From an uncultured Thermoleophilia bacterium (GTDB lineage Bacteria; Actinomycetota; Thermoleophilia; UBA2241): a stretch of 64,000 bases of DNA. The DNA is taken from assembly GCA_963735345.1 (NCBI GenBank), contig CAVTKL010000013.1, positions 321,130 to 385,129 of the forward strand, given 5' to 3'. A program made the translations under genes and the position numbers. The notes beneath the pieces are model-generated. The model saw only the letters and a program-made list of their open reading frames with translations, was not told the origin of the DNA and ran no database searches. Numbering within the stretch: the stretch's first letter is position 1; each line of letters opens with the position of its first letter. This document shows, one piece after another, positions 29,764 to 59,779 of this stretch.

Positions 29764-29799
29764 TGCGCCCGGTCCCATTGGCTGCTTCGCCCGCGACCG

Positions 29800-31092: not shown

Positions 31093-31095
31093 CGT

Positions 31096-36641: not shown

Positions 36642-39600
36642 TCAGTTCACTGTCAACCGTGCCGCCGGGACCTTGCTCGCCACATTGCCGGCGAGATCGG
36701 TCGCCAGCACGCGCCAATTGTAGGTGCCCTTCTTGAGCACCGCTTTGTATCTGCTGATCTGCGCGACATTGCTGATCCGCGTTCCCACGGTGATGGTCTT
36801 CACGACCTTCGTGTGTTTCCTGATCTGGATCTTGACGACGGCCTTGCCGCAACCGGGCAACGCGTCGGTGATCCGGAAGCGGAGCGTCGCCACCCTGCCT
36901 GCCTTCACGGAGACGGCGGTGGCCGCAGTGCTCGGCCTCGCGCTGTCGATATTGACGAAGCCGATCTCGGGGGCCCCGGCGTTCCCGGCCCTGTCAGTCG
37001 CCGAGTACGTGACCGTGTGACTGCCCGCCTCGCTCACGGTGAGAGGGCCCGCGTAGACGGTGCTGGGACCGCCATCGATGCTGTAGCTGATGCTCTCCGC
37101 GCCGGACTTGGCGTCGCTCGCCGTCAGGACGACTGTCTGGTCGGTCTTGAGCCAGCCGCTCGTAGGGGTGCTCGCCAGGACCGGCCTGGACGAGACCGCA
37201 GGGGGCGTCACGTCCACGTTCACATACCCGGCATCGTGGACCGATTCCGTGGCGAGGCTGTCGCTAGCGTAGTACTTGAAGGAGTGTGAGCCCTCCTGGG
37301 CGATGACAACCGCGGCGCTGTCCCCCAAGATATCGGTCCATGTCGCGCCGTCGTCCGTGCTGTAGTGGATGGCGCGCTGCGCACCCCCGCCACCGGCGGC
37401 GCTCACGACCACCGTCTGCGCAAGGTTGTGCCAGCCGGTCGTCGCGGCTGCGGCGAAACTGTACGTCGTCTCGCTGACCGGTGGCGGGGAGTCAACGAGG
37501 ACGGTGAAGCTCCGATCGGCCTCCCGGTTACCTGCGGCGTCGATCGACCGGTAGGAGACGGTGTGCGACCCGTGGCTCAGCACCACGGCCGAGCCGCTAC
37601 GGTATTCGCCGGCATCGTCCACTTTGTACTCGGTCCTGGCGAGGCCCCCCCTCATGCCCGAGAGAGCGTCGGTCGCGCTCAGAACGATCGTCGCCGGAGC
37701 CATCAGCGACGCCACCAGATGATCGTCGGTGGTGACCGGCGAGGTCTTGTCGATGTTCACGAAGCCAGGGGCGTGCGTGGCCTCTGTGGTCAGCGAGTCG
37801 CTGGCATAGTACTGGAAGCGGTGAGAGCCTTCGGCGCTCACCGTCACTTCGGCACTGTCGCCGGCGGTCGTGGTCCACGTGGAACCGGCATCCGTGCTGC
37901 AGTGAATGGAGCGTGAGATGCCGGTGCCGCCGCTCGCCGTGACGGTCACCTTCTGATCGGCGCTCTTCCAGCCGCTGGCGCCGTTCCAGGCGAACACGTA
38001 GTCGCTGCTCGACGTCAGCAGATTCGATGGAACGTATCCGCTCCGCGCCGCAAGGATGGTGCCAGCGTCGCCGACCGTCCACCCCCACGCCGACACGCCA
38101 TAGAGAGGTTTGCCCGTCCCTGAGTCCTGTGGGACCCAGGTGACGCCGCCGTTCGTGGTGACGAGCATCGTCCCGCCCGCGCCACTGATCCAGCCCTGTG
38201 AGGCGTCTCCGAAGGACACGTCATGCAGATCGTTGCCCGTCCCAGAGGACTGGGGTGTCCAGGTGGCTCCGCCGTTTGCCGTTGTGAGGATGGTGCCACC
38301 AACGCCGACCGCCCAGCCATGCGACGGGTCGCTGAAGGCGACGCCGGCAAGATCGACGCCCGTCCCCGAGACCTGTGGAGCCCAGGTGGAGCCGCCGTCG
38401 GCGGTCGCCACGACGGTGCCGCCCACGCCGACCGCCCACGCGTGTTGACTGTCGGTAGCAGCCACATCAGCCAGCCTGCGGACGGTCCCCGAGGCCTGAG
38501 GAGCCCAGGTGGAGCCGTCGGTACTGACGAGGATCGTGCCGCCGGCGCCCACTGCCCAACCCCGCGTGAGGCTGGGCATGGCGACGTCATCGAGGGCCGG
38601 GTACGCCCCGGGCGTCGTCTGCGACGCCCACGTTGCGCCTCCGTCCGCAGTCGCGAGAATGATGCCCTGGGCGCCCGCGACCCACCCGTGAGCGGCGTCG
38701 ACCGCATCGGCGCCGTACAGACTCGTATTGCCGGCCGGCCGGCCCTGGGACACCCACGTGACGCCGGCGTTCGCGGTGGCGAGGATCAACCCGTTGTCGC
38801 TGACTGCCCAGCCGTGCGTCGCGTCGGAGAAGCTGACACCCAACAGAGAACTCAGTGTCCCTGCGCTCAGCTGGCTCCACGTCGCGCCATCGGTGGTGTG
38901 CAGGATGGTCCCATTGACGCCCACCGCCCAACCCGCACTCGTGCCGACTATGGAAGCGCCGGCCAGGTTACTCCCGGGGCCAGCGGTCTGCGCACTCCAA
39001 GTCGTGCCGTCGGCGGTGGCGGCGATCCATCCGCCCTCGCCCACCGCGTAAGCATGCGTGCCGTCGTGACTGCAGGTGATCCATCTGAGGTTTTCGGGGA
39101 CACCTGAGGACTGAGGGACCCAGGTCGCGCCGCCGTCCGTGGTGATGAGCAGGGTTCCGGCGTAGCCCGCCGCGTAGCCATGTACAGCGTCGTCAGCGAA
39201 GGCAACAGCTCTCACGGTCACGCTTGTCCCCGAAGCCTGGGGCCCCCAGATGGCGCCGCCATCCGCGGACGCCACCATCGTGCCGCCGTCGCCGACCGCC
39301 CACACACGCGAGCCGGCGCTGTCGCAGGTGACGCCTCGGAGGAATTGCGTCGTGTTCGACGCCTGCAGGGTCCAGCTGGCGCCGCCGTTCGACGTGGCGC
39401 AGATGACGCCGCCACCGCCGACCGCCCAGCCGAGTGTACCGGTGCTGTCGAAGGCGACGGCATGCAGCCACTCGCCCGTCGGCGCACTACGATGGGTCCA
39501 GGTGACGCCGCCATTGGTCGTCACCAGAATGACTCCGCCGTCACCAGTGACCCAACCATGACGACCATCGCTGTTGAACGCTACCCCCGTCAACCAGAGG

Positions 39601-39863
39601 CGAGTCCCCGAAGCCTGACCGGTCCACGTAGCCCCACCGTCCGCCGTGGCGATGATGGTGCCGTTGGCGCCCACGGCCCAACCGTGCAGGGAATCCGAGA
39701 AGGCGACGCCACTAAGCTGGTTCCCCTGGGGCAAGGGATTCTGCCAGAACCAGGTTCCGTCGCCAGTCGAGACAACAGCTGAAGCCGGACCTGCCGCCGC
39801 GGCGAGAGCCAGAGCCGTCATCAGGGCGGTCACCCAAATCGCAAGGACGTGCCTGGTGTTCAC
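36642..39863 (-). CDS. Large secreted BNR/Asp-box (Ycf48-like / GH74-like) tandem beta-propeller protein with C-terminal Ig-like domains
   Basis: About 16 SxDGGxTW repeats, then C-terminal Ig-like segments. GTG at 39863 is preceded by GAGGAGG and followed by a signal peptide (AAAAGPASA-VV). Confidence 0.8.
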   Translation of the reverse strand: MNTRHVLAIWVTALMTALALAAAAGPASAVVSTGDGTWFWQNPLPQGNQLSGVAFSDSLHGWAVGANGTIIATADGGATWTGQASGTRLWLTGVAFNSDGRHGWVTGDGGVILVTTNGGVTWTHRSAPTGEWLHAVAFDSTGTLGWAVGGGGVICATSNGGASWTLQASNTTQFLRGVTCDSAGSRVWAVGDGGTMVASADGGAIWGPQASGTSVTVRAVAFADDAVHGYAAGYAGTLLITTDGGATWVPQSSGVPENLRWITCSHDGTHAYAVGEGGWIAATADGTTWSAQTAGPGSNLAGASIVGTSAGWAVGVNGTILHTTDGATWSQLSAGTLSSLLGVSFSDATHGWAVSDNGLILATANAGVTWVSQGRPAGNTSLYGADAVDAAHGWVAGAQGIILATADGGATWASQTTPGAYPALDDVAMPSLTRGWAVGAGGTILVSTDGSTWAPQASGTVRRLADVAATDSQHAWAVGVGGTVVATADGGSTWAPQVSGTGVDLAGVAFSDPSHGWAVGVGGTILTTANGGATWTPQSSGTGNDLHDVSFGDASQGWISGAGGTMLVTTNGGVTWVPQDSGTGKPLYGVSAWGWTVGDAGTILAARSGYVPSNLLTSSSDYVFAWNGASGWKSADQKVTVTASGGTGISRSIHCSTDAGSTWTTTAGDSAEVTVSAEGSHRFQYYASDSLTTEATHAPGFVNIDKTSPVTTDDHLVASLMAPATIVLSATDALSGMRGGLARTEYKVDDAGEYRSGSAVVLSHGSHTVSYRSIDAAGNREADRSFTVLVDSPPPVSETTYSFAAAATTGWHNLAQTVVVSAAGGGGAQRAIHYSTDDGATWTDILGDSAAVVIAQEGSHSFKYYASDSLATESVHDAGYVNVDVTPPAVSSRPVLASTPTSGWLKTDQTVVLTASDAKSGAESISYSIDGGPSTVYAGPLTVSEAGSHTVTYSATDRAGNAGAPEIGFVNIDSARPSTAATAVSVKAGRVATLRFRITDALPGCGKAVVKIQIRKHTKVVKTITVGTRISNVAQISRYKAVLKKGTYNWRVLATDLAGNVASKVPAARLTVN

Positions 39864-40233
39864 GTTCAGCCTCCTCGGGCACGCCTCCCGCGCAGAAGGG
39901 TCATGCGCTGCCCCGACAAACCCACCAGCGACGCGTCCAGCCACCGTCCGGCAGCGCCGCAAGGACGTCAGTATCTTAGCCGCTGTGGCGCCCCGAGGTC
40001 GAGATAGACTTGCCCACTGGCAGCGACTCGCCCGCCCGATTCGAATGACCTCAGCCCCGGCACGCGCTGTGATAGGCTGCCAACCGAACCGCCCGAAGGA
40101 CCTGTTCGTGGACGATCATGAATGCGTTAGTTCCGCAGCGGGCTCGTGACGTACCAGACGGATCCTGCGGGCAAGCAGAGACTGGCCGAGCGGAGACTCG
40201 ACCTGCACATGCCGACGCAATGGAGCTGACCTG

Positions 40234-41307
40234 GTGATGATCGAATCACTCGCGCGCCGGGGCATGGACTCCCTGGTCCTTTGTCAGAAGGCCAGGCAGC
40301 ACTGGCAGCGTCGCACAGAAGACGGCCGACTTGTCGAGGCGCGACGCTCTCGCTTCTATCGCAGGGCCTGGGAAGAAGCCGCGGCCGCCACGGGGGCTTC
40401 GCTCACGCATCTCGACGAGACGGTCACGGAGATCAGCGTCGGCGGCCACCGGCTCCTCGTGTCCGACAGTACGACGTCTCTGGACGATCCTGTGACGCTC
40501 CGCATCGCCGGGGACAAACCCCTCGTCTATCGGCTCCTGGGCGCACAGGGAGTACCTGTGCCTCGCCATGTCGTCTGTCCAGGAGACGATCTGTCGAGCG
40601 CTTGGCGATTCGTGTCGCGAACGCGTGAGCCCTGCGTCGTCAAGCCGGCACGCAACACGGGAAGGGGCAACGGGGTCACGGCAGGAGTGACGAGCAGACG
40701 TGGCCTGGTCGGCGCGCTGGCGCTGGCGGCCTCGTATTGCGGCGACGTCGTCATTGAAGAGCAGGTCTGGGGAGGCAACTACCGGCTCCTGTACTTCGAT
40801 GGCGAGCTCCTCGACGCTGTCCTGAGGTGCCCTCCGGTCGTACGTGGCGACGGCATCCACACCCTTAGGGAGCTGATCGCCGCTGAAAACCGAGACAGGA
40901 TGCGCGGGGGGATCGAGACGAGTCAGACCCTTCTTCCTCTCGACCGGGAGCTCCGCAAGACCTTACGGGAGAGCAGCTTCCGGCTGCGTTCGGTCCCGCC
41001 CGCCGGTGATCTGGTGCGCCTGAAGACCGTCATCAGCGACAACCGAAGAGAGGACAATGTACCCGCCTCTCACCGCCTGTGCGCGTCGGTCGTCGAGAGC
41101 GGCGCGACTGCTGCCCGCGCGGTGGGAGCGCGGCTGGCCGGTGTGGATGTGATCACACCGGATGCCGCGGTCCCTCTCAGCGAGTGCGGGGGCGCGATCA
41201 TCGAAGTCAACACGACGCCGGGTCACTACTTCCACTATGCGGAAAGGTCAGACCCGGGCGCGGTGGCGCGAATGATCCTGGAACGACTCGCCGGGAGCGC
41301 CACGTAG
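40234..41307 (+). CDS. ATP-grasp family ligase (RimK/cyanophycin-synthetase-like)
   Basis: ATP-grasp core (CVVKPARNTGRGNGV, EEQVWGGNYRLLYFDGEL, IIEVNTTPG). Confidence 0.7.
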   Translation: MMIESLARRGMDSLVLCQKARQHWQRRTEDGRLVEARRSRFYRRAWEEAAAATGASLTHLDETVTEISVGGHRLLVSDSTTSLDDPVTLRIAGDKPLVYRLLGAQGVPVPRHVVCPGDDLSSAWRFVSRTREPCVVKPARNTGRGNGVTAGVTSRRGLVGALALAASYCGDVVIEEQVWGGNYRLLYFDGELLDAVLRCPPVVRGDGIHTLRELIAAENRDRMRGGIETSQTLLPLDRELRKTLRESSFRLRSVPPAGDLVRLKTVISDNRREDNVPASHRLCASVVESGATAARAVGARLAGVDVITPDAAVPLSECGGAIIEVNTTPGHYFHYAERSDPGAVARMILERLAGSAT

Positions 41308-41403
41308 GGCAGGCGCCGATGCCTGGGCAAGAGTGACCCGCACGCCGATGCGCGGAGCGCGCGCCGGACCCACCCGCCCAAGCCACAGGAGGTGTGACGA
41401 CAG

Positions 41404-42501
41404 ATGGAGACGCCAGTGATCCTGATCGACGCGGACGCTCTCACCGCCCACGTCGCGAAGCTCCTTCACGCCGCTGGAGTCGGCGTTGAGGATGCGCGCT
41501 TCTGTGCCGAATGCCTTGTCCAGACGAGTCTCTGGGGCAAGGATTCCCATGGTGTGATGCGAGTCCCGCACTACATGAAGCGGCTGGGAAGCGGCGCCCT
41601 GAACCCGAGACCAACGCCTCAGATCGTTCGCGGCGCGGGCGCCCTGGAAGTCATGGATGCCGACAATGGCCCCGGGCACCTCGCCGGCAGGGACGCCATG
41701 CTGCGCGCCATCTCGCTGGCGGAGATCCACAACGTCGGCGTCGTCGGCGTCGTCAAGAGCAATCACTTCGGAGCGGCCGCCGTCTTCGCGCGCCTCGCTG
41801 CAGAGCGCGACATGGTCGGTATCGCGATGACCAACTCCGTCCCCAAGGTCATCGCGCCGGGGGGGGCGAAGCCGATCACCGGCAGCAACCCGATCGCCAT
41901 CGCGGTGCCCACCCATGGCGACTTCCCGTTCCTGCTCGACATGTCGCTCTCTGCCGTAGCTGGCGGCCGCCTGCTGCTGGCCGCTCAGAGCGGCGAGCGA
42001 ATCCCCACCGACTGGGCGACCGACGCGCAGGGTCAGCCGACGGACGACCCAGCCAAGGCCTTCGCCGGACTCTGGCTGCCTATGGGAGGCGTCAAGGGCC
42101 TCGGGCTGTCCTACGCCGTCGACATCCTCTGTGGCCTCATCACCGGAGGAGCCTTCGGGCTGGGCATGAAGAGCCAATACTCCAACCCGACCGAGCCGAG
42201 CGGGACCGGCCACATGATGATCGCCATCAACGTCGCCGCGATCATGGACAGGGACGAGCTCCGCGAGCGCATGGCGGAGTTCTGCTCGGCGATCAAGTCA
42301 TCGCCGATGCGCGACCCCTCTCTGGAGATGCTCATCCCCGGAGAGCGTGCTCACCGGACCGCGGAGCAACGCCGGTCACACGGGATCCCGCTCTCGCCCG
42401 ACCTCTACGACGAACTGCTGGCTCTCGGCGCCGCATTCGATATCTCCACGACACTCGCCCCGCTGCCGCAGCGCGCCTTTGACGAAGATGGACCGGCGTG
42501 A
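41404..42501 (+). CDS. Ldh_2 family oxidoreductase (malate/L-sulfolactate/ureidoglycolate dehydrogenase family)
   Basis: GKDSHG and SNHFGAAA motifs typical of the Ldh_2 family. Confidence 0.75.
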   Translation: METPVILIDADALTAHVAKLLHAAGVGVEDARFCAECLVQTSLWGKDSHGVMRVPHYMKRLGSGALNPRPTPQIVRGAGALEVMDADNGPGHLAGRDAMLRAISLAEIHNVGVVGVVKSNHFGAAAVFARLAAERDMVGIAMTNSVPKVIAPGGAKPITGSNPIAIAVPTHGDFPFLLDMSLSAVAGGRLLLAAQSGERIPTDWATDAQGQPTDDPAKAFAGLWLPMGGVKGLGLSYAVDILCGLITGGAFGLGMKSQYSNPTEPSGTGHMMIAINVAAIMDRDELRERMAEFCSAIKSSPMRDPSLEMLIPGERAHRTAEQRRSHGIPLSPDLYDELLALGAAFDISTTLAPLPQRAFDEDGPA

Positions 42502-43794
42502 GGGCTGATCTGCCGAGGCAGCTGTCAGACGTTGGATCAGGTGCCTGCCCACGCGCCCGAAGAAACGCGACGCAGCGACAGCGGAGGGCATAGGGTCGTC
42601 CCAGCGGAAGTACGGAAGGACCTGGCGGTGTGCGAGACTCCTGGCCCAAGCGAAGAGTGTGAGCTCCTTTCGTTGCCTGAGCTCGAGAAAGGCCCGGACA
42701 TCTCGCCCCGGCCACCACAGATGCAGCCCCTGCGTGTACTGCTTCCCATCGAGTGACTCGTTTGGCAGACCGACAAGCCGGCCGTAGACGAACGGCGCCA
42801 GATCGTACCCGCTCGCCACAAGAAGCATGTTCGCCGCCGTGAACCGCGCGTTGCACTCGATGACTTTCAGCTTGCCGTCCCGCTGATCGAGCTTGAACTC
42901 GACGTTGCCGAGTCCGAGAAGCCCAGCATGTTCGAAGAGGCGCAGGCCCAGGTCGCGGACCTCGGGGATCCAGTCGGTGACGTGGTAGCAGCCCATCCCC
43001 CGATTCACTGGGAAGCGGCGAACGACGCGCTTCGTGTACGCGAAGAGCGGCGTGCCCGTCTCGTCCACGTATGAGAAGAGGCTGCACAGGCGATCGTCCG
43101 GTCCAGGGATCTCTTCCAGGAGCAGAACGTCCAGACCGTGGCTCGTGGCGCGAGAGTAGGCGCTCATCAGCTCGGCGAAGTCCATGACCCTGAAGAACTT
43201 CGCGCCGAAGACGGCGACGAACTTGTGTGAGTAGAGCGGTTTGACCAGCAACGGGTAGACGAACTCGTCCTTCTGGGCCTCCAGATGCTCTACGCTGTCG
43301 GCCGTCCAGAACAGAGGCGTGTCGAGTCCGGCCTCGCGCGACACCCGATAGGTGGACAGCTTGTTGAGAAAGCAGCGCTGAGCCGACGGGTCGGAGATAT
43401 CCAGCACGAACTTGTCAGCCAGTCGCTCCCGGTGCTCCAGAATGATCTCGATGCCGGCGTCACTGCAAGCTAGAAGGACGGCTCCTCGCAGTGGCTCCGA
43501 CTCCTGCCCGAGCAGGTATCGAGCCCAGGCGTCCTGAGGCCGAACATCCTGTGGCAGACGGATGAATCGCGCGTGTCTCGAATACGCGTCCGAGGTACCG
43601 GGGTTTCCCAGCAGGTACACCCCGATGCCCCGCTGGCCGAGGCTTCGCGCGACCGACAGGGCATTGGCCTCTGACCCCCCCAGAAGGATGGCCGGAGGAA
43701 GGCCGCGGCTGCCATTCAATTGGCCACGGTACGGAGTGCGTGGAGTCTGCATCGTCGGCCGCTCTCCGCCGTGGTCTGTCTGCGCCGTATCCAT
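42376..43794 (-). CDS. ATP-grasp domain protein (carboxylate-amine ligase-like)
   Basis: ATP-grasp fold motifs (YPLLVKP, EEIPGPDD, KVIECNARF). Start is uncertain (M at 43794 or 43752). The 3' end overlaps the convergent Ldh_2 gene by 126 nt. Confidence 0.6.
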   Translation of the reverse strand: MDTAQTDHGGERPTMQTPRTPYRGQLNGSRGLPPAILLGGSEANALSVARSLGQRGIGVYLLGNPGTSDAYSRHARFIRLPQDVRPQDAWARYLLGQESEPLRGAVLLACSDAGIEIILEHRERLADKFVLDISDPSAQRCFLNKLSTYRVSREAGLDTPLFWTADSVEHLEAQKDEFVYPLLVKPLYSHKFVAVFGAKFFRVMDFAELMSAYSRATSHGLDVLLLEEIPGPDDRLCSLFSYVDETGTPLFAYTKRVVRRFPVNRGMGCYHVTDWIPEVRDLGLRLFEHAGLLGLGNVEFKLDQRDGKLKVIECNARFTAANMLLVASGYDLAPFVYGRLVGLPNESLDGKQYTQGLHLWWPGRDVRAFLELRQRKELTLFAWARSLAHRQVLPYFRWDDPMPSAVAASRFFGRVGRHLIQRLTAASADQPSRRSIFVKGALRQRGECRGDIECGAESQQFVVEVGRERDPV

Positions 43795-44187
43795 TTCGAT
43801 GACGACCCCCTGCGGCCCCTCGACCGGGAAGGTCGACCGGAGCGTACGACTTCCTGGCCGACCCGCCGTGAGTACGGTCGAGTCCGACCCGGGCGACCCG
43901 TCGAGCGCCGGGCGCGCCCGTCGTGCGCCGTCCGCGGCACCCACTGTCGCGGGAGTCTACTCCAATCCCCTCCAGCCGGCGACGGGCGCGTGCTCGGCCT
44001 CGCCGATGACGTCGTCGCAGTCCTGGACTCTTGGTCGGGTCCCCTCCACTTTCCAGCCGCCGCCGTGCCAGAGTAGACTGTCTCGGGCTACGCCGAGTAC
44101 GGCGTCGTCGAACTCAGCCAGCCGCGACCGAGCCCAATGAGGGCTGGCCTCGGCTACTCCTCAGCAACGGGCGAAGAGAGGCCGAAG

Positions 44188-45216
44188 CACATGTCTGAGC
44201 CACTCCGTATCGGCATCGTCGGTCTTGGCAAGATGGGCGGCATCCGCGCCACGACGGTCCGCCAGAACGACGACACGGTCCTGATCTCGGGCACTGACCC
44301 AGCCCCACCGGCGAGGGGCTTCGGCGACCTGCGTCTCTTGCCGGACTACAAGGCGGTCATCGACTCCGACGTCGATGCGGTGTTCGTCTGCACGCCCAAC
44401 CGCTTCATCCCCGAGGTCGCGATCGCCGCCCTGGATGCCGGCAAGCACGTCTTCTGCGAGAAACCGCCCGGCCGCACGATGGACGACATCGAGCACATCA
44501 TGGCTGCCGAGACACGCAACCCCGGCCGCGTCCTCAAGATCGGCTTCAACCACCGGTACCACTTCGGCATCATGGAGGCGAAGCGCATCGTCGAGAGCGG
44601 CAAGTACGGCAGGATCCTGTGGATGCGTGGCATCTACGGCAAGGGGCAAGGATCCGCGGGCTATCCCAACGAGTGGCGCCGCGATCCCGCCGTATCCGGC
44701 GGAGGAATACTTCTCGACCAGGGGATCCACATGCTCGATCTGTTCCGGCACTTCAGCGGAGAGTTCACTGAGATCAAGAGCATGTGCGCAACGTCCTTCG
44801 GGGACGCTCCCTTGGAAGACAACGCCTTCGCCCTGCTGCGAAGCGAGCAGGGATGCGTCGCCATGCTGCACAGTTCCGCAACGCAATGGAAACACCGATT
44901 CACCATTGAGATCTGCATGGAGAATGGCTACGTGGTCGTGGACGGCATGCCCTCCTCCACGCGCAGCTACCGAGACGAATGGCTCATCGAAGGCGAACGA
45001 TCCGGAGGATTCGCGATCGGCAACCCGCCCGAGAAGTCCACGTTCTGCAACACTGACCCGTCGTGGGACCTCGAACTCGTCGAGTTCGTCGACTGCATCC
45101 GCCGCGGTCAACCGACCCGCTATGGCACCTCCCGAGACGCCTTCGAGACGATGCGGCTCGTGTTCGGCATCTATGCTGCCGATACGGGGTTCGTCGAGCC
45201 ACCAGCGACGCCATAG
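44188..45216 (+). CDS. Gfo/Idh/MocA family NAD(P)-dependent oxidoreductase
   Basis: RIGIVGLGKMGG Rossmann motif and EKP motif (VFCEKPPGR). SD GAGAGG. Confidence 0.8.
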   Translation, partial: HMSEPLRIGIVGLGKMGGIRATTVRQNDDTVLISGTDPAPPARGFGDLRLLPDYKAVIDSDVDAVFVCTPNRFIPEVAIAALDAGKHVFCEKPPGRTMDDIEHIMAAETRNPGRVLKIGFNHRYHFGIMEAKRIVESGKYGRILWMRGIYGKGQGSAGYPNEWRRDPAVSGGGILLDQGIHMLDLFRHFSGEFTEIKSMCATSFGDAPLEDNAFALLRSEQGCVAMLHSSATQWKHRFTIEICMENGYVVVDGMPSSTRSYRDEWLIEGERSGGFAIGNPPEKSTFCNTDPSWDLELVEFVDCIRRGQPTRYGTSRDAFETMRLVFGIYAADTGFVEPPATP

Positions 45217-45244
45217 CGAACGCTCCAGGCGAGGAGAGCCCACG

Positions 45245-46198
45245 AAGGATCACACGCCGATCGCCGTCACCTCACGCTCCTTCTCGCGACACCCGATCCT
45301 GCGGGCGGAGCTGATGGAGAGGTACTCGGACATCCGCTTCAACGACGAGGGCTTGGCTCTCGGCGGCGCGGCGCTGGTGGAGTTCGCGCGCGGCCGCCGC
45401 AAGCTGATCACCGCGCTCGAACGTATCGATGAGACCGTGCTCGCCGCGCTGCCCGAGCTTGAAGTGATCAGCAAGTACGGGGTCGGTACCGACATGCTCG
45501 ACAAGCGCGCCATGGCCCGACACGGCGTCCGCCTGGGATGGACCGGCGGCGTCAACAAGCGCTCGGTCACTGAGCTCGCGATCGCCTTCATGCTCTCGCT
45601 GCTTCACGAGGTGCCGCTGGCCAATCGGGAACTGGCAGCTGGCACCTGGAAGAACCGTCAGGGGCGAGAGCTCTCTGGTCGCGTCGTCGGCATCGTCGGC
45701 TGCGGAAGCATCGGCAAGGACCTCGCACCTCTCCTGCGCGCGTTCGGGTGCACGGTCCTGGCCCATGACATCCTCGACTTCCCGGAGTTCTACGCAGCCA
45801 ATCAAGTGGAGCCGGTCGGGCTCGAGGAACTCCTGCAGCGATCGGACGTCGTGACCCTGCACGTGCCGCTGGACGACAGCACGCGCAACATGCTGAACGC
45901 CGGAAGGCTTCGTCTGCTGAAGCCCGAGGCGGTGCTCATCAACACGGCCCGCGGCGGCCTTGTCGACGAGGTGGCCCTCAAAGCCATGCTGGCGGAGGGC
46001 CGCATCGGCGGGGCGGCGTTCGATGTGTTCGCGACAGAGCCGCCCGAGGATCTCGAATTGCTCCGCTTGCCCAACTTCCTCGCCACGCCGCACATCGGCG
46101 GCAGTTCTCAGGAGGCGGTGCTGGCGATGGGCCGCGCGGCGATCAGGGGACTGGACGACAACAGGCCGCCGACCGACGGTGCCGGGGCCATGGACTGA
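45245..46198 (+). CDS. D-isomer-specific 2-hydroxyacid dehydrogenase (PGDH-like)
   Basis: GIVGCGSIGKD NAD motif and catalytic His region (PHIGGSS). No canonical start codon between the upstream stop (45216) and the conserved N-terminus, so the start coordinate is approximate. Confidence 0.7.
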   Translation, partial: KDHTPIAVTSRSFSRHPILRAELMERYSDIRFNDEGLALGGAALVEFARGRRKLITALERIDETVLAALPELEVISKYGVGTDMLDKRAMARHGVRLGWTGGVNKRSVTELAIAFMLSLLHEVPLANRELAAGTWKNRQGRELSGRVVGIVGCGSIGKDLAPLLRAFGCTVLAHDILDFPEFYAANQVEPVGLEELLQRSDVVTLHVPLDDSTRNMLNAGRLRLLKPEAVLINTARGGLVDEVALKAMLAEGRIGGAAFDVFATEPPEDLELLRLPNFLATPHIGGSSQEAVLAMGRAAIRGLDDNRPPTDGAGAMD

Positions 46199-46208
46199 TG
46201 GAGTAGCG

Positions 46209-47003
46209 ATGAGAAAGAACACCGTGAAAGAGATCTGGGCACGCGGCGGAGCCGTGATCAACGGCTGGTGCTCGATCCCCAGCTCGTTCTCCGCTGAGAT
46301 CATGGCCCATCAAGGCTTCGACTCGATCACCATCGATATGCAGCACGGATTGGTGGACTACCAGGTCGCAGTCACGATGCTGCAGGCCATCTCGACGACG
46401 CCGGTCATCCCACTCACCCGGGTGCCGTGGAGTGACCCGGCCCGACTCATGAAAGTCCTTGATGCGGGCTCGTACGGGGTGATCTGCCCGATGATCAACA
46501 CCCGGGAGGATGCCGAGGCCTTGGTGGCTGCGTGCAAGTACCCGCCGAGAGGCTTCCGCAGCTTCGGCCCTATCCGGGCGAAGTACTACGGCGGCGGCGG
46601 CACGCACGGCGGCGGCGACTACCACCACTTCGCCGACGAGGAGACGCTCGTCATCCCGCAGATCGAGACTCGTCAGGCCATCAGCAATCTCGACGAGATC
46701 CTCGAGGTCCCAGGCATCAGCGCGATCTACATAGGACCGTCGGATCTCTCCATGGCGCTGGGCAAGGAGCCACGCGCAGGGCAAAGCGACCCGGAGGTGC
46801 GGGAGGCGATGCGGACCATCCTCGCCGCCGCCAAGCGTCACGGTATCCCAGCCGGCATCCACACCAACTCAGTGGGGGTCGCCGTGGAGATGATCAAGCA
46901 GGGCTTCCAGCTGACCTCCTTGCAGAGCGACGACCGCTTCCTCATGGCGGCGGCGAAGGCCGAGGTGGAGGCAGTACGCAAGGGCCTCGGCGAGGACAGC
47001 TGA
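46209..47003 (+). CDS. HpcH/HpaI family class II pyruvate aldolase
   Basis: Characteristic HpcH/HpaI-fold regions (VINGWCSIPSSFSAEIM, IPQIETRQAI, IYIGPSDLS). SD GGAG. Confidence 0.75.
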   Translation: MRKNTVKEIWARGGAVINGWCSIPSSFSAEIMAHQGFDSITIDMQHGLVDYQVAVTMLQAISTTPVIPLTRVPWSDPARLMKVLDAGSYGVICPMINTREDAEALVAACKYPPRGFRSFGPIRAKYYGGGGTHGGGDYHHFADEETLVIPQIETRQAISNLDEILEVPGISAIYIGPSDLSMALGKEPRAGQSDPEVREAMRTILAAAKRHGIPAGIHTNSVGVAVEMIKQGFQLTSLQSDDRFLMAAAKAEVEAVRKGLGEDS

Positions 47004-47014
47004 AGGAGGCCCCG

Positions 47015-47635
47015 ATGACGTTCCCTGACACCAGGTTCGCCGACGCTGGTGACTACGCAGACGCCTACTTCGAGCACATTCGCGAGGCCGCGGCCTCTGT
47101 CGACGGAGCCAAGCTTCAAGCGGCGGCCGTCATCCTCACACAGGTCCACCGTCACGGCGGCATGGTCTACTCCTGCGGTAATGGAGGGTCAGCGGCCATC
47201 GCCAACCACCTGGTCTGCGACCACTGCAAGCTGGTGCGCACCGACACGGACCTTACACCGCGCATCTACTCGCTCAGCTCCACCATCGAGCTCATCACCG
47301 CCATCGGCAACGACCTGTCGTACGACGAGGTGTTCGTGTACCAGCTGAAAGCGCTTGCCAAGCCCGGCGACGCACTGATCACGATCAGTTCCTCCGGTGA
47401 CTCCGAGAACGTGGTGCGTGCCTGCGGCTGGGCCAAGGAGTACGGCCTCCCCGTGATTGCGATGACGGGCTTCTCCGGTGGCCGTTCGGCGCACCTGGCG
47501 GACGTGAACCTGCACGTCGAGGCCGACAACTACGGTGTCATCGAGGACGTGCACCAGTCGCTGATGCACATCCTTGCCCAATACATCCGGCAAGCGCACA
47601 TGGACGAGGCGCTCGTCGAGAGACGTACGTTCTGA
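47015..47635 (+). CDS. SIS-domain phosphoheptose isomerase (GmhA-like)
   Basis: GNGGSAAIANHL and ISSSGDSENV motifs match GmhA. SD AAGGAGG. Confidence 0.75.
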   Translation: MTFPDTRFADAGDYADAYFEHIREAAASVDGAKLQAAAVILTQVHRHGGMVYSCGNGGSAAIANHLVCDHCKLVRTDTDLTPRIYSLSSTIELITAIGNDLSYDEVFVYQLKALAKPGDALITISSSGDSENVVRACGWAKEYGLPVIAMTGFSGGRSAHLADVNLHVEADNYGVIEDVHQSLMHILAQYIRQAHMDEALVERRTF

Positions 47636-47769
47636 CCCGGACTCGATTCGCCAACCGCCCCCAGATGGACCTGTCGACTCGCCCCATAGCTGAGACCCCG
47701 CGCACTCGAACGAGCGCCCAGCGCCCCACTGAGGAGACTCGGTCAGCGACGGACTCCCGCGTCCTGCAC

Positions 47770-48790
47770 ATGCCCGATCTGGGGAGCACGGTGTACCTCC
47801 ATCATGTTCCCGACTGGGCCGCCGAAGCACTTCCCGACCTGTACCAGAGCTGCTACGCGGTCCAGGACTACTTCCTTGAGGACGACCCATCGAGGAACAT
47901 GAGCACCTGTGTCCTGGAGGACCCACGACACATCGTGGTGTTCGCCGTGGATGGCCGAACGGTTGTCGTGCAGAATCGGCTGTTCGATATCGACCCCAGG
48001 TCTGCGTCTCGTGTGATCCGCTCGATCTTCCGCGCGCTTCCCCGCGTTCGCCGCGATCCTGATGAACCGGTCGAAACTCGACCTCAGTGCGATGCCCCAC
48101 CCAAGTCGGGTCATTGAGACAGCTTCAAACATGGTCGTCGCCCTGCCGGACGACCTCGAGAAGTACCTCGCGGGCTTGGGCAGGACGCGTCAGAACCTGC
48201 GCAGGTACTTCAGGCGGTTCGCGACGTCCTTCCCGACGTACACCTTCAGCACGCTTAGGTCCAGCGAGATCGACCACGCCTTCGTCCACCGCATGGTCGA
48301 GATGAACCGTCAGCGCATGGCAAGCAAGGGCTGGGTCAGCTCGTATCGCGACGAGGACGAAGCCTTCCTCTTGGAGCGCGCGCAACGTCATGGCTTCGCC
48401 TGCGCGATCACGATCGACGGCACGATTGTCGCGGGCACCCTCTCATCACGCGTGGGCGACCAAGTCTACCTGCACATAACGACGTTCAGCAATGAGTACT
48501 TCGAGTACCATCTTGGCTACGTCGTGCTCTTCCTGCTCGTGTCGGCGTGCATCGACGCCGGGGTGGAGAAGCTGCATTTCCTCTGGGGCAAGTCCGAGTA
48601 CAAGATGCGCTTCGGCTGCATCGAGGAGCGAGTCCACGATGGGTTCGTCTATCGTTCGTGGATCTGGTGGGCCCTGAGCATGGACGACATCGCGAAGCGA
48701 ACCCGCTGGCGCTGGCGCACAGGACGCGCGTCCGCGATGCGCGCCGCGCTGCGACGCCGCCTGCGCCGCCTGTACCCACTGAAGCAGTAG
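47770..48790 (+). pseudogene. FemAB/CelD-like GNAT acyltransferase (Acetyltransf_6-like), one frameshift near 48040
   Basis: N-terminal half is in ORF 47665-48117 and C-terminal half in ORF 48062-48790. The two halves are in different frames. Confidence 0.5.
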
Positions 48791-48937
48791 GCCTCGAACC
48801 TGTCGAAGGCCGCCATCGCGAGGGCCCCCACCGTCCCCTGGATCCCAGGCGGGACTCAACGCTTCCAGGGACTTGTCGTACGATGTGCCACCGTGGTTAG
48901 CTGTAGCGTCGGGACACCCGACGGATGACCATCGAGT

Positions 48938-50706
48938 GTGCTCAGCGCGCACGGAGGAGTCGACGCCATGACGTGGCTCATGATCCGCTGGATGCTTCTG
49001 TTCGTGCTCTGTCTGGGTGCCGCGCCAGCTGTTCGTTCTGGCTTCTGCCTCTTCAGAGAAGGCGGGAGCCACCCGCACCCCTACTGCCGCGAGGGCGGCG
49101 GCCGCCCCTCTGAGCAAGTGGCAGGTGACGCTAGGCGCCTCGCCGGCCAAGGTCCAGATGAACCAGAGGATCACCTTCTCGGGGGCTGTAAGCGACGGCA
49201 AGCGGCAAGGCCGGAACCGGCACCGTGACGATCCAGAAGCGGCCCTTCTCAGGCGGCGCCTGGAGCACCTGGAGGTCGGCGACCCTGAGCTCGCGGGGCG
49301 GCTACGCACTCACCGTCACGATGACCGCCGCCCAGGTCTCGCAGGTGCGCGCCAGGATGCCCGGCAACGCCGCCAGCGCCACCGGCTTCAGCGCGAACAA
49401 GAAGGTCACGGTGGAGGCCGCGGCAGGCAAGACGCTCAGCGTGCGCGAGTTCGGCGCGAAGGGAGACGGCAAGAGGGACGATACCGCCGCCATTCGCGCC
49501 GCCCTGAAAGCCTCCTTGGCAAAGGGACGCACTCTCTCTTTCCCCTCTGGGACCTATAGGGTGAGCTCCCTCCTGCTGCCTGCCAGAGCCAAACTCGCCG
49601 GCGCAGGCGCGGGGCGCACCTGGATCAAGGGACGTGTGGAGGCGAGCGGCGGCGATCGCCTGAAGGACCTGAAGGTCGGCGTCGACGGCCACTCGTTCCG
49701 TTTCGTCAACGGCACCAGAGACGTCCTTTTCGAGCGAGTCACCTTCGTCGGCGGCGGCGGCTCCTCCGACGCCCTGATCGATTCGGGCGTGATTCGTTTT
49801 CACGAGGGTCGCAGGGCATCGTTCATCACCTTTCGTGCCTGCACCATCGGCCGCAACTCGGCGAACGGCAACGGCGTGATCCTGGTCGACCGGGGTCGCC
49901 CCGACGCCACCTACCACGACATCGTCTTCGAGCGGTGCCACTTCCTGGCCTCTCCGCGCATGAGCTTCGAGGCCATCCAGCGGCCGTCGGGCGACGAAGC
50001 AATCACCACGGGCTACCACGGGATCGACCTGATCGCAAACCTCTTCGAACCGGCAGGTTCCCAAGCCATCTCATACGACGCCGACGAGGGGCTAGCCGGT
50101 GACTCGCTTGTCTCGGGCAATGTGATCATGGGCGCCGGCACGAACGCGGCCTACCCATGGGGAGCGGGTGTCGAGTTCAACGGCGTTGAAGCCATGCGGT
50201 TCGTCAACAACAAGGTCTACCGCTGTCGCGGGTCGATGATCAACCATCAGGGCTACGCTCGCGCCGTGTCCAACAACACGTTCAGCAACAACGTCTTCGA
50301 CAGCACCACAAGCCATATCCGGCTCACGCCGTCCGCCTGGACGGGCGTCATCGAGTTCATTGGTGTGACGGGTTCGCAGTTCATCGACAACATCGTGCGG
50401 ACCAACGTGGGCGGCCAGCAGGTCATGCTATCCGAGTCATCCGACAACGCTTTCCTGCGGAACGAGATCACGGATGAGCGGCCGGCTCCCTACGCGCTGG
50501 CGTCGGTGTGGCTGGAGGACACCTCCCTCCGGAACACCTTCGACAGCAATCGCTTTGAGACCGCCGCTGAGTGGGGGACCTTCTGTGCGTACCGAGGCTC
50601 AGACTTCAACGTCGTGTCCAACTGCGCGTTCGTCACGTACGGCGGCAGACCCGTCGATGTGGACCCCGGCCTCACGTTGACGCTTGTGAACAACACGTAC
50701 AGGTAG
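48938..50706 (+). CDS. Secreted pectate-lyase-superfamily right-handed beta-helix protein; two frameshifts in the N-terminal 300 nt
   Basis: Signal peptide in frame 2 (48938), Ig-like segment in frame 0 (49017 ORF), then the beta-helix (REFGAKGDGKRDDTAAIRAAL motif) in the 49225 frame. Confidence 0.7.
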
Positions 50707-50865
50707 CTGGAGACCGAAGAGGCGCCGGTCTCGGAAGTACGGACCTCTGCAGTACCAGCATCGGCGAGCAAGCGGGACAACCTCCCGTTCTCTCGCCGCT
50801 TCCATTGTGCGAGAATGGCACGACTCGCTTCGGGCCGGAGTCATCTTTCAGAGGGGGCGACTCAC

Positions 50866-51966
50866 GTGAATCGGCGCGGGATCGGACGCTTCGAGCGGGT
50901 CCTCATACAGGTCGGCCCTGCGCGCCAGTCCGGCGGCATCGCCGACGTGATGCAGGCCATCGAGCGCTGGTCGCGCGCCTCTGGACGACCTGTGCGCACC
51001 GTGAACACCTCGTGCGACGGTCCCCTCGCGGCACGGGCGGCCACGGGCGTTGCGGGCGTTGCGCAAGCACTCGCACACATCGCCGCCCAGCCTGAGGCAC
51101 TAGTCCACGTGCACATGGCCTCCAACGGCAGCTTCCTCCGCAAGTCGACCGTCGTCATCGCCGCGCACGCGCTGAGACGGCCGATCGTCCTGCAGATCCA
51201 CGGCGGCGGCTTCGCCGCCTTCGCCACCGGCGGCAGCGCCGTACGCAAGCGCTGCGTCAGGCATGTTCTCGGCCTCGCTGACGTCGTCCTTGTCCTCAAC
51301 GAGGCTTCTCGTCGGGCGATGGGCGCGCTTCAGCCGAACGCGCCCATCGAGATCGTCCCCAACCCGGCGACGCTTCTCTGCGGTACGCTCACGGACCCCG
51401 CTTCGAGACAGATCCTCTTTCTTGGCCGCCTCGGGCGAACAAAGGGCACCGATGTGCTCCTGGAGGCCATTCGCGCCCTTCAGGCTGCGGGGGTTGATGC
51501 CGACTATGTACTCGCAGGGGACGGCGACATCAAACGCACGCGCGAGGTAGTCTCGAGTCTGCCGGCCCCGCAGCGTGTGCGGGTCCCGGGCTGGGTGCGG
51601 GGAGATGATGTTCACATACTGCTGCACGAGTCGAGCGTCTTCTGCTTGCCCTCGAGATACGAGGGTCTTCCCATGGCGCTGCTGCAGGCCATGGGGCACG
51701 GTCTCGCCTGCGTCGTCACGCCCATAGGTGGCATGCGCGACATCATCGACAGTGGAGAGAACGGCATGCTGATACCGGTAGACGACAGCCAGACGCTGGC
51801 ACGGGTGCTCGGGAGCCTCCTCGTCGACGCACCGGAGAGGGCCAGACTCGGTAGAGGGGCCGCCGAGACCATCCAGGCCGGGTACACGCCGGATGTGGTC
51901 ATGCGACGCCTGGACGAGATCTACTCCACCATGTGGGCAGGCGAGGGCCATCATGGGGGCGCTTGA
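50866..51966 (+). CDS. Glycosyltransferase family 4
   Basis: GT4 motif EGLPMALLQAMGHGLACV. GTG at 50866 with GAGGGGG SD. Confidence 0.8.
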   Translation: MNRRGIGRFERVLIQVGPARQSGGIADVMQAIERWSRASGRPVRTVNTSCDGPLAARAATGVAGVAQALAHIAAQPEALVHVHMASNGSFLRKSTVVIAAHALRRPIVLQIHGGGFAAFATGGSAVRKRCVRHVLGLADVVLVLNEASRRAMGALQPNAPIEIVPNPATLLCGTLTDPASRQILFLGRLGRTKGTDVLLEAIRALQAAGVDADYVLAGDGDIKRTREVVSSLPAPQRVRVPGWVRGDDVHILLHESSVFCLPSRYEGLPMALLQAMGHGLACVVTPIGGMRDIIDSGENGMLIPVDDSQTLARVLGSLLVDAPERARLGRGAAETIQAGYTPDVVMRRLDEIYSTMWAGEGHHGGA

Positions 51967-53351
51967 CCGTCTGCGCGGTTCCTACGTCAACTCGCCGCCC
52001 TGGCTCCAGTCGACGGGAGGGCGCGCGCTCTCGGTGGTTCCTCCTGCCATCCTCTACGGGACGGCCTTCCGCGAACTGCGGGCTGACATCGAGCGCAGCC
52101 GCCACGATGCCGCGTTCGTCGACGAGCGCGTTCGCGCGTCGCTGCGCACGCTGTTGACGCGCGCCAGCGCGACCGCATTCTATGGCCCATTCGCTCTCCC
52201 GGATCGATCTGGAATCGCCCAGCGTCGCGGGCCTCGCGACACTGCCGATCCTGACGCGAGACGCGGTGAGAGCACAGACGGAACGCATGCTCACGGTCCC
52301 CAGGTCAGGACTGGACGAACGTCATACCAGCGGCACGTCGCACGCCCAACTCACTGTCTTCCTGGACAGAGACAGGTCAGTGCGGGAATGGGCCTTCATC
52401 ACGAACGTCTGGGGCAGGAGCGGATACCGCCTGGGCGACCGGCGCGCCTTTCTGCGGCGGGGCGAAGGAGGCCTGCCCGGAGACTGGACGTGGGAGCCAG
52501 GCACCAGAGAGTTGCGACTGACACCGTTCAGGATGATCCCGCCGGTCATGGACGACTATCTGAGCCTCATGTCTCACTACAGGATCGCCTACGTCCACGG
52601 CTACCCCTCCGCAATCACCCTCTTGGCGGCGCATGCCCGCAGGACGGGATGGGCGCCCTCACCGCCTCTGAAGGGTGTATTGCCCATCTCGGAGTCCCTC
52701 CTGCCGCACCAGCGCGAGATCATCCGGGAGGGCTTCGGGCCGGTCCGCATCCAGCCCTTCTACGGACTCACGGAGAAGGTCGCCCTGGCGGGCGAGATCG
52801 GCGACCGCCCCGACGAGTACGAGTTCGAGCCGCTCTACGGCATCACCGAGATCGTCGACGCCAGTGGCGAGCCCGTCGAGCCCGGGCAGCGCGGCAGGCT
52901 CATCGGCACTGGCTTCATCTCGATGGGCATGCCGCTCATCCGCTACGACACGGGTGATCTCGCCACCCTGGTCGATGCGCCTTCGGCGGAGAACTGCTGG
53001 CGTCTGCGAGCCAGGAACATCTCCTCGTGCTATGCGCAGGAGTATGTCGTGACCAACGAACGGGGCCTCGTCTCGGGGCTCTCCGCCCGTCCGCACGATG
53101 ACCGCGTCAAGGACTTCCAGATCGTCCAGCGGGAAGCCGGGCACATCACGCTGCGCATCGTCCCCGAGGAGGGAGTTGGCCTCGACAGACTGGCCTCCAT
53201 TCCCGAGAAGACGCGCGCCGAGTTCGATGATCTCGTATCGGTCGACATGGAGATCGTCGACGCGATCCCGCTCACAGCGGGCGGGAAGAAGCGCTACGTG
53301 GAGCAGCATCTCGACCTTTCCCAGTACGGGGGTGTCGATGCTCCGGAATAG
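51953..53351 (+). CDS. CapK / phenylacetate-CoA-ligase-like adenylate-forming enzyme; one frameshift near 52195
   Basis: N-terminal 80 aa are in the 51893 frame, and the rest is in the 52182 frame with AMP-binding-like motifs (TSGTSH, YGLTEK). Confidence 0.6.
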
Positions 53352-57846: not shown

Positions 57847-58080
57847 CACGAACCGTGTTGGGTTCGCCGGCAGGATGCTACTCATGTCGATGCCGCCCCG
57901 TTTAGAGGCTCCGAGCACGTTCGCGACACCGCTGCACAGTCAGGCGCACGCGCTCAGAGTGATCGTCCGATCCTGCCGCCGCCGACTGCATCCCCGATAC
58001 CAACGTGCGCGAAGTCGACGTAGTCACTGACCATTCGCGCCCGGCGCCCTATGGCCCGGTCCCCGACGCCCGAGGGACGC

Positions 58081-59646: not shown

Positions 59647-59779
59647 TTCCAGTCCGGAGATCGCCACGCTCGCCCCCCCGCCAAGACCAAGCCGGCCATC
59701 AGGCTCTGTGCTGTCTGTACCCGTCGGCGCCCATCCTGGAACCCCAGCGACCTCCGACGACACCCCCCTGACGTCGACG

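Follow-up and report, generated by a model that had tools for sequence, protein, structure and literature searches.

We analysed a stretch of 64,000 nucleotides (the window) from an uncultured Thermoleophilia bacterium (assembly GCA_963735345.1, contig CAVTKL010000013.1, positions 321,130 to 385,129), in which seven genes at 40234-47635 had been read, in an earlier note made from the sequence alone, as a pathway to an amidated sugar acid. All seven genes were found where the note had placed them, and every one of its family assignments held against Pfam, NCBIfam, PDB and AlphaFold/Foldseek. The whole window has a G+C content of ~66% and its raw lists of open reading frames (ORFs) are full of spurious frames; genes were called using third-position G+C (GC3) and a codon-score model and were then checked with Pfam. 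The frames of all seven genes were supported by GC3 frame analysis, and independent gene calling on a second contig, which carries an identical aldolase, returned the same seven genes.

Four genes on the plus strand make up the core. These encode a Gfo/Idh/MocA dehydrogenase (Gfo, 44191-45216, with an alternative start at 44137; Pfam GFO_IDH_MocA and C-terminal domains, E = 1.5e-26), a phosphoglycerate dehydrogenase (PGDH)-like D-2-hydroxyacid dehydrogenase (2HADH1, 45242 or 45314 to 46198; 2-Hacid_dh_C, 1.3e-55), an HpcH/HpaI class II 2-oxoacid aldolase (HpcH, 46209-47003; HpcH_HpaI, 8.6e-35) and a GmhA-like SIS isomerase (SIS, 47015-47635; SIS_2, 1.1e-23). The two ATP-grasp ligases and the Ldh_2 oxidoreductase described as upstream of this cassette are indeed present, with a corrected layout: AG1 (40234-41307, plus strand; NCBIfam and PDB matches) is followed by Ldh_2 (41404-42501, plus strand; Pfam Ldh_2, 9e-113), which lies between the two ligases, and then by AG2 (42376-43794, with the start at 43794 or 43752; AlphaFold model and Foldseek), which is on the minus strand and divergent from Gfo. 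The Ldh_2 and AG2 ORFs are convergent and overlap at their 3' ends by 126 nt (42376-42501).

Tight spacing and good Shine-Dalgarno sequences had been claimed for all four core genes. The gaps are 25 nt between the Gfo stop and 2HADH1, 10 nt between 2HADH1 and HpcH and 11 nt between HpcH and SIS, the first of these only if 2HADH1 starts at 45242, and Shine-Dalgarno-like motifs precede HpcH (GGAG) and SIS (AAGGAGG). At the position that gives this spacing, 2HADH1 has no canonical start codon (ATG, GTG or TTG). An ACG codon at 45242 occupies the position of the ATG or GTG start of its orthologues, the first ATG comes only at 45314, and the conserved N-terminus TPIAVTSRSFS is encoded between the two. 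This suggests that 2HADH1 may use a non-canonical ACG start in this lineage. GGAGAG is found 5 nt upstream of the ACG codon, and ACG stands at the same position in two related loci (L007 and L090). A promoter and terminator scan of 39900-49300 returned nothing above shuffled expectation.

Recurrence of the module across phyla

Related loci were collected from a scan of one genome per species, a metagenome collection and look-ups of individual contigs. Requiring an aldolase at least 69% identical to that of the window gave 39 non-redundant loci besides the window, 17 of which have at least 4 kb on both sides (the well-flanked set). The four core genes are together in 29 of the 39 loci and the remaining 10 are cut by contig ends, which excludes a chance arrangement. 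Across the 39 loci the core proteins are ~63-92% identical in amino acids to those of the window. All hosts are metagenome-assembled genomes or metagenome contigs, from many phyla, the best known being Ca. Endoriftia persephone, the symbiont of Riftia. The locus of this symbiont (L171; AFOC01000008.1, 2720-23340) holds a complete eight-gene module. Searches for further relatives passed 7112 aldolases and 4464 isomerases. The best 120 of the 7112 aldolases are 81-93% identical, except for one protein (P0001, see below), and carry names from Gemmatimonadota, Thermoleophilia, KSB3, Burkholderiales, Calditrichota and Acidimicrobiia; the best 120 of the 4464 isomerases are at least 73% identical to that of the window.

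Further genes accompany the core. In 11 of the 17 well-flanked loci a lactonase gene separates 2HADH1 from HpcH, and its product scores 177 bits against the TIGR01198 pgl model (cut-off 124), making it a bona fide member of the 6-phosphogluconolactonase family. One further oxidoreductase, either a second PGDH-like, D-type dehydrogenase (2HADH2) or Ldh_2, is found in 16/17 well-flanked loci, and the two occur together in none of the 40 loci (Fisher p = 0.0004 in the well-flanked set). The AG1-AG2 pair lies beside the cassette in 9/17. In L006, L091 and L092 AG1/AG2 are inserted in the core, at times between HpcH and SIS, and in L088 SIS, AG1, AG2 and Ldh_2 are collinear on one strand. AG1, AG2 and Ldh_2 therefore travel with the four-gene cassette in other phyla, as the reading of these genes as one functional unit had supposed. 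Judged by its sequence relatives, the window region is a local copy of a conserved module of seven to eight genes, in a variant that carries Ldh_2 and the ATP-grasp pair and lacks the lactonase. A literature search on this gene combination found nothing relevant.

The G+C content of the core genes tracks that of their hosts (r = 0.94, related loci L004-L103). Among the aldolase genes GC3 ranges from 0.30 to 0.96 while amino-acid identity to the window stays at 73-92%. Recent horizontal transfer was considered as a source of this high identity and is ruled out by the way in which core-gene G+C follows that of the host.

Enzyme families and conserved residues

The aldolase is a clear HpcH/HpaI protein (120.5 bits against a Pfam cut-off of 25) with orthologues at 70-92% identity, and it falls under the equivalog cut-offs for HpaI (167 bits, cut-off 369), GarL (144, cut-off 407) and RhmA (110, cut-off 441). 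Its closest PDB entry is the hydroxyketoacid aldolase SwHKA (173 bits, ~38% identity), an enzyme that accepts hydroxypyruvate (PMC10099721, PMC7610986). We surveyed residues in 45 cassette and 125 paralogue sequences and aligned them with GarL and SwHKA. D43, H46, R71, S118 and R123 are invariant in 45/45 cassette sequences, and E153 and D179 do not vary in the GarL/SwHKA alignment, so that all catalytic residues are kept. The module enzyme thus shares its fold, its catalytic His/Arg/Ser and its metal ligands with SwHKA/HpcH1 of Sphingomonas wittichii (PDB 6r62, 7o5i) and with GarL/HpaI. It differs from SwHKA and GarL around the substrate. The donor C3 site, which packs on the methyl group of pyruvate, is His218 in 45/45 cassette sequences, whereas GarL has Leu and SwHKA has Phe there. 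A six-residue Gly-rich insertion is present in all 45 cassette enzymes and in none of the 125 paralogues; it follows the position of R120' of SwHKA, a residue through which the adjacent subunit contacts the acceptor aldehyde and which is replaced by Ile in the cassette aldolase. The loop formed by residues 125-139 is specific to the cassette enzymes, with Lys125, His133 and His139 invariant. These features point to a donor site that may accommodate a polar C3 substituent and an acceptor site that may bind a short phosphorylated aldehyde.

Paralogues of the aldolase at 55-66% identity stand alone in unrelated contexts (Rokubacteria and others), and their neighbours, which are unrelated housekeeping genes, were rejected as a clue to the substrate. 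An HMMER search of 1.84 billion representatives returned no informative aldolase fusion except P0452, a metagenome protein in which a region with a weak SMP-30/gluconolactonase-like score is joined to an HpcH relative (54% identity). Two other candidates were set aside: the fusion in P0001 (67% identity) is a tandem-duplication artefact of a paralogue, and the apparent AG1-AG2 fusion in P0353 has a linker that looks out of frame and is probably a frameshift artefact.

The SIS protein scores 120 bits against TIGR00441 gmhA (cut-off 209.45) and is also under the cut-offs of the other GmhA models. Its orthologues are 62-87% identical and nearly all exactly 206 amino acids long. Aligned to GmhA structures, it resembles the GmhA of the ADP/GDP-heptose pathways in its SIS_2 fold, its phosphate-binding Ser-x-Ser-x-x-Ser motif and both metal/catalytic His residues. 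It differs in having Asp for Glu65 and Glu for Gln172, and Arg69 and Asp169 are not kept (the numbering, with His61, Glu65, Gln172 and His180, is that of E. coli GmhA). From these residues the enzyme is a phosphosugar isomerase, but probably not one for sedoheptulose 7-phosphate. No heptose kinase, phosphatase or nucleotidyltransferase is conserved beside the cassette in the related loci, and these absent companion genes, together with the sub-threshold GmhA score, led us to reject a GmhA/heptose pathway.

An EKP motif is visible in the translation of Gfo, which falls under every NCBIfam equivalog cut-off, has orthologues at 69-79% identity and has levoglucosan dehydrogenase, inositol dehydrogenase and aldose-aldose oxidoreductase as its PDB neighbours. 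2HADH1 is closest to phosphoglycerate dehydrogenases (PDB 1wwk, 5.7e-49; orthologues at 63-79%). The Ldh_2 protein clearly belongs to its Pfam family (377 bits) and scores under the NCBIfam equivalogs sulfolac_dhydr (243.7 bits, cut-off 500) and AllD (202.8 bits, cut-off 496.2); its closest characterised relative is the L-sulfolactate dehydrogenase ComC (PDB 2x06, 8e-62). The PGDH-like 2HADH and Ldh_2 families act on 2-hydroxy or 2-oxo acids with a distal anionic group. The phosphate Ser motif and both His residues of SIS, taken with the kinship of 2HADH1 to phosphoglycerate dehydrogenases, argue for phosphorylated substrates of the module.

Both ligases match Pfam weakly (AG1, Dala_Dala_lig_C, 0.0011; AG2, CPSase_L_D2, 2.5e-4). 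AG1 resembles the ATP-grasp (G) domain of cyanophycin synthetase (NCBIfam PRK14016, 8.5e-48, under the cut-off; PDB 7lgn cyanophycin synthase, 1.5e-33). It also aligns to GshAB and resembles the ATP-grasp domains of glutathione and N-acetylglutaminylglutamine amide (NAGGN) synthetases. The AlphaFold (AF2) model of AG2, with a confidence score (pLDDT) of 87.9, matched biotin carboxylase, BacD, PylC and PurK in Foldseek with probability 1.00, a TM score of ~0.55 and at most 18% identity. This fold search returned generic ATP-grasp relatives only and did not refine the substrate class; on its model, AG2 is an ATP-grasp enzyme with no close solved relative. AG2 is of the COG3919 or 'D-aspartate ligase' type, its homologues bear the source name 'D-aspartate ligase', and orthologues at 27-55% identity adjoin the cassette. 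A C-terminal extension of ~65 amino acids is absent from the orthologues and modelled as disordered (pLDDT <50). The ATP-grasp fold of both AG1 and AG2 is solid despite the weak Pfam scores.

Genomic settings of the module

In the window the module lies within a polysaccharide locus (~13-60 kb) with housekeeping genes on both flanks. By Pfam, this locus encodes a Wzz/tyrosine-kinase protein (15642-17363) and an ABC-2 exporter of the Wzm/Wzt type (30247-31788, minus strand), followed on the plus strand, up to 36585, by a family 2 glycosyltransferase (GT2), a family 4 enzyme (GT4), a 332-amino-acid protein and another GT4. On the other side of the module, 49225-59787 encodes a beta-helix protein, a GT4, a weak AMP-binding-like protein, a heparinase II/III-like protein, a UDP-glucose dehydrogenase (55314-56615), a GT4 and a Bac_transf priming transferase (58081-59787). 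GtrA, a GT87-like protein and several GT4/GT2 glycosyltransferases are also present in the locus. The glycan setting ascribed to the unit in this genome, with ABC-2 transporter, GT2/GT4 enzymes, UDP-glucose dehydrogenase, priming transferase and Wzz around it, was therefore confirmed.

The canonical enzymes of phosphoenolpyruvate (PEP)-dependent ulosonic-acid synthesis are absent from the window, as had been expected: when the ORFs called in the window were scanned with Pfam, no KdsA/NeuB-type synthase (DAHP_synth_1, NeuB) and no CMP-transferase (CTP_transf_3) were detected, the only nucleotidyltransferase in the window being a fusion of NTP_transf_3 and APH. The window also holds no sugar-acid dehydratase (Edd/IlvD, enolase superfamily). 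Elsewhere, the conserved neighbour clusters contain no dehydratase, and neither do the 25 Pfam families most frequent in 88 neighbour proteins, to which that listing was confined; neither a CMP-transferase nor a phosphatase is conserved with the module in the related loci.

Several features of the window locus stand apart from the module. The NTP_transf_3 (MobA-like) and APH-type kinase fusion (28258-29778) lies beside a second SIS protein (together 27659-29778, minus strand); the two resemble a sugar-activation route of their own within this polysaccharide locus and are not conserved with the module elsewhere. The heparinase II/III-like gene runs into that of the UDP-glucose dehydrogenase with a 4-nt overlap (53098-56615), and the pair hints at a polymer of uronic acids that is acted on by a lyase or by a modifier of the C5-epimerase type. 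A 1106-amino-acid protein with BNR/YCF48/Sortilin-like repeats and an Ig-like domain is encoded between the glycosyltransferase block and the module (36642-39962, minus strand), and its gene has near-equal G+C at first and second codon positions, which is unusual. Three coding-like ORFs have no Pfam match (34475-35473, the 332-amino-acid protein; 25377-26063; 26113-27219). No tRNA genes that would mark an island boundary were found in the window.

Directly downstream of SIS is a possible accessory gene for a FemAB-like acetyltransferase (Acetyltransf_6, 47665-48790, plus strand; Pfam 7e-15 on the 3' ORF), which is broken into two frames near 48030-48060. Its L090 orthologue, a single ORF, aligns in two frames of the window, and on the second contig with the identical aldolase the gene is a single ORF of 337 amino acids. 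The split is apparently a frameshift pseudogene or an assembly error.

Glycan genes adjoin the module or lie within 10 kb of it in the window, L015, L081, L083/L087, L088 and L089. Glycosyltransferases flank the module on both sides in the window and in L088, and Wzz and a priming transferase do so in L015. The 332-amino-acid protein adjoins the module in L088 (48%) and L015 (34%), and a GT4 is also conserved there in L088. In L017 and L093 the glycan context consists only of tblastn matches to glycosyltransferases of the window. Annotated loci with unrelated nearest neighbours are L004, L005, L006, L007, L009, L012, L013, L014 and L171/L097, where a phosphatase, a NACHT protein, peptidases, a transposase, a thiamine pyrophosphate enzyme, a beta-lactamase, a sensor kinase, an FAD oxidase and pyruvate phosphate dikinase (PPDK) are found. 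In L171 the module adjoins genes for a 1016-amino-acid FAD oxidase and a PPDK/PEP-synthase-like protein, with no glycosyltransferase within 10 kb. In a scan of 88 neighbour proteins (16 further loci), each Pfam family was seen at most twice.

According to the earlier note, the same cassette in genomes with no glycan context, such as a catabolic operon with transporters and regulators, would speak against its proposal. Non-glycan contexts do exist, in about half of the annotated loci; a catabolic operon is rejected, as no transporter or regulator recurs beside the module in the loci examined. The module can thus occur outside glycan loci and is not a catabolic operon.

Candidate chemistry and its alternatives

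We built the proposed chemistry on the observed enzyme families, conserved residues and gene associations, inferring each chemical step. The reading that we favour, tentatively and at a little under even confidence, is that an aldose phosphate would be oxidised to a 2-keto-aldonate phosphate, which would enter a hydroxypyruvate-type aldol reaction, and that the resulting acid would be reduced and coupled by the ATP-grasp ligases, most likely to the local polysaccharide. SIS would convert a ketose phosphate, probably a hexulose 6-phosphate such as fructose 6-phosphate, to an aldose phosphate, and Gfo would oxidise this at C1 to a lactone phosphate. The lactone would be opened to the aldonate phosphate by the lactonase or, as in the window variant, by spontaneous hydrolysis. 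Lactones of the 6-phosphogluconolactone type also hydrolyse spontaneously, and PdxB and KguD-type enzymes act on phospho-aldonates. 2HADH1 would then oxidise C2 of the aldonate phosphate by PdxB/KguD-type chemistry, giving a 2-keto-aldonate phosphate. The presence of a pgl-family lactonase in the related loci points to C1 oxidation of an aldose phosphate.

HpcH would carry out C3-C4 aldol chemistry of the hydroxypyruvate type on this 3-hydroxy-2-oxo acid. Since no dehydratase is conserved with the module, a 3-deoxy acid is not expected to form from the aldonate, and the aldolase substrate would keep its 3-hydroxyl, which agrees with His218 and with the SwHKA evidence. The outcome may be cleavage to hydroxypyruvate (then glycerate) and a short phospho-aldehyde, stereochemical resetting, aldehyde exchange or addition to a ketone; HpcH enzymes add to ketones in vitro (PMC7610986). 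Ldh_2 would reduce a 2-oxo acid to the L-2-hydroxy acid, and 2HADH2 in other loci would give the D form. AG2 and AG1 would convert the carboxylate to an acyl phosphate and join the acid to an amino group, perhaps through an amino-acid spacer, the acceptor in this genome being most likely the polysaccharide of the surrounding locus. ATP-grasp amidation of envelope polymers has precedents in the D-aspartate ligase Asl of peptidoglycan (PMC4155827) and in Cj1438C, which forms a glucuronamide (PMC11800379).

Compared with known systems, the module matches no described pathway and is best described as closest kin to the sugar-acid and oxidative sugar-phosphate pathways. With the Entner-Doudoroff (Zwf-Pgl-Edd-Eda), non-phosphorylative L-rhamnose (LRA1-4) and Dahms pathways it shares a C1 dehydrogenase (often of the Gfo family), a lactonase and an aldolase (of the HpcH family in LRA4), and its 2HADH step resembles that of the 2-keto-6-phosphogluconate reductase KguD, in which this family interconverts phospho-aldonates and 2-keto-phospho-aldonates. 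Unlike these oxidative sugar-acid pathways, the module has no dehydratase, begins with an isomerase, is never found with transporters or regulators and often lies in polysaccharide loci with ATP-grasp ligases. The predicted activity of AG1/AG2 is like that of Asl/Aslfm, of Cj1438C in the Campylobacter jejuni capsule and of the G domain of cyanophycin synthetase, with ATP-dependent activation of a carboxylate and transfer to an amine or hydroxyl of an envelope precursor, and VanH-VanA likewise pairs a 2HADH with an ATP-grasp ligase. In contrast to these decoration enzymes, AG2 has at most 18% identity to solved relatives, AG1 is a stand-alone G-domain-like protein and neither is TupA-like as Cj1438C is.

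Several observations weigh against the favoured reading. The lactonase is absent from the 64-kb window by tblastn, and in other loci it could instead hydrolyse a product lactone. C1 oxidation by Gfo is predicted, but its nearest structures include C3- and C2-oxidising enzymes, and no protein of the window reaches a curated NCBIfam equivalog cut-off. His218 occurs also in stand-alone aldolase paralogues. Simple aldolase cleavage would give trivial metabolites (hydroxypyruvate/glycerate and a common aldose phosphate), which seems a poor fit to a conserved six-enzyme route, and final reductases of D and L specificity would give different stereoisomers. No ATP-grasp pair is in reach in 8 of the 17 well-flanked loci, and no glycan genes lie near the six annotated core-only loci (L004, L005, L007, L009, L012 and L013). 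Because the annotated loci lacking the pair have non-glycan contexts, the core seems to work also without the ligases or a local glycan pathway. Finally, the high identity of the module reflects very strong purifying selection, like that on a translation factor such as EF-Tu, which is unusual for surface-decoration genes.

The route proposed in the earlier note, in the form considered here, runs from an aldose phosphate made by SIS, through aldolase addition of pyruvate, to a 3-deoxy-2-ulosonate phosphate like 3-deoxy-D-manno-octulosonic acid (Kdo), its 3-deoxy-nonulosonate relative Kdn or a heptulosonate; the dehydrogenases would tailor this acid (for example by C2 reduction to a 3-deoxy-aldonate), the lactonase would keep the product open and the ligases would amidate it. 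HpcH enzymes are pyruvate aldolases by default, the catalytic residues are all present, the SIS product is the only obvious aldehyde of the module, the basic aldolase loop could offer a binding site for the phosphate group if the acceptor is an aldose phosphate, and the window has neither KdsA nor NeuB. Pantothenate biosynthesis follows a parallel logic of aldolase, 2-oxoacid reductase and ligase. The module also resembles the Kdo, Kdn and nonulosonate pathways (KdsD-KdsA-KdsC-KdsB; NeuB/NeuA) in placing a SIS-fold ketose-phosphate isomerase first and an acidic surface unit last. Unlike those PEP-dependent pathways, however, it has no KdsA/NeuB, CMP-transferase or dedicated phosphatase and uses a metal-dependent class II aldolase instead; it also includes three NAD(P) dehydrogenases and, in other loci, a lactonase, and activation would probably proceed through an acyl phosphate rather than a CMP-sugar. 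An ulosonic sugar acting as a glycosyl donor is unlikely because the module has neither a CMP-transferase nor a phosphatase as a conserved companion. Pyruvate addition would also leave Gfo and one of the two 2-oxoacid dehydrogenases with no role, the simplest partner for the pgl-family lactonase is a C1 dehydrogenase, and a His replaces Leu at the site of the pyruvate methyl. We therefore consider this Kdo-like 3-deoxy route unlikely, and retain from the note a new acid route, ATP-grasp coupling and a glycan context in this genome.

A second alternative, which we also judge improbable, is that the product is a free small molecule (an osmolyte-like conjugate of a sugar acid and an amino acid, a low-molecular-weight thiol or a cofactor-like compound) or a universal modification of the envelope or of a peptidoglycan precursor, with the location in polysaccharide loci being secondary. 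The unrelated neighbours in L004, L005, L006, L007, L009, L012, L013, L014 and L171/L097 are consistent with this, as are the complete, self-contained module of Ca. Endoriftia persephone and the extreme amino-acid conservation despite a base composition ameliorated to each host. The likeness of AG1 to glutathione/NAGGN synthetase domains and of AG2 to the peptidoglycan D-aspartate ligase points the same way. However, glycan genes flank the module in the window, L088 and L015 and lie within 10 kb in L081, L083/L087 and L089, and the conserved companions of the module include no aminotransferase, thiol-handling gene or exporter.

A central-carbon shunt, Entner-Doudoroff-like and free of a dehydratase, from hexose 6-phosphate through 2-keto-6-phosphogluconate to hydroxypyruvate/glycerate and glyceraldehyde 3-phosphate, with the ATP-grasp ligases as a lineage add-on, is very unlikely. 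In its favour, dehydrogenase, lactonase, 2-hydroxyacid dehydrogenase, aldolase and reductase would lead without a gap from one common metabolite to others, the D-type reductase is present in every one of the six annotated core-only loci, all in non-glycan contexts, conservation is like that of core metabolism, and known oxidative sugar pathways end with HpcH aldolases (the P0452 relative being fused to a weak lactonase-like domain). Against it, the shunt would bring no energetic gain over the Entner-Doudoroff pathway or glycolysis, the Ldh_2 copies would produce L-glycerate, a compound outside central metabolism, the conserved neighbours include no glycerate kinase and the tie to ATP-grasp ligases and polysaccharide loci is frequent.

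Taken more broadly, it is possible, though we hold this with low confidence, that the module encodes an unrecognised, dehydratase-free oxidative pathway to a ligase-coupled acid that serves as a new decoration of an envelope polymer or as a new small molecule. The labels 4-hydroxy-2-oxoheptanedioate aldolase and phosphoheptose isomerase, which annotation pipelines attach to thousands of metagenomic relatives, are almost certainly wrong, and identifying the product would correct this widespread mis-annotation. The product could be a metabolite not yet described or an acidic group new to bacterial polysaccharides, and a natural role would become possible for hydroxypyruvate-type aldolases, which have so far served mainly as biocatalysts. 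If the proposal is true, a pathway conserved like core metabolism would span at least ten phyla, its hosts being mostly uncultured bacteria and among them the Riftia symbiont.

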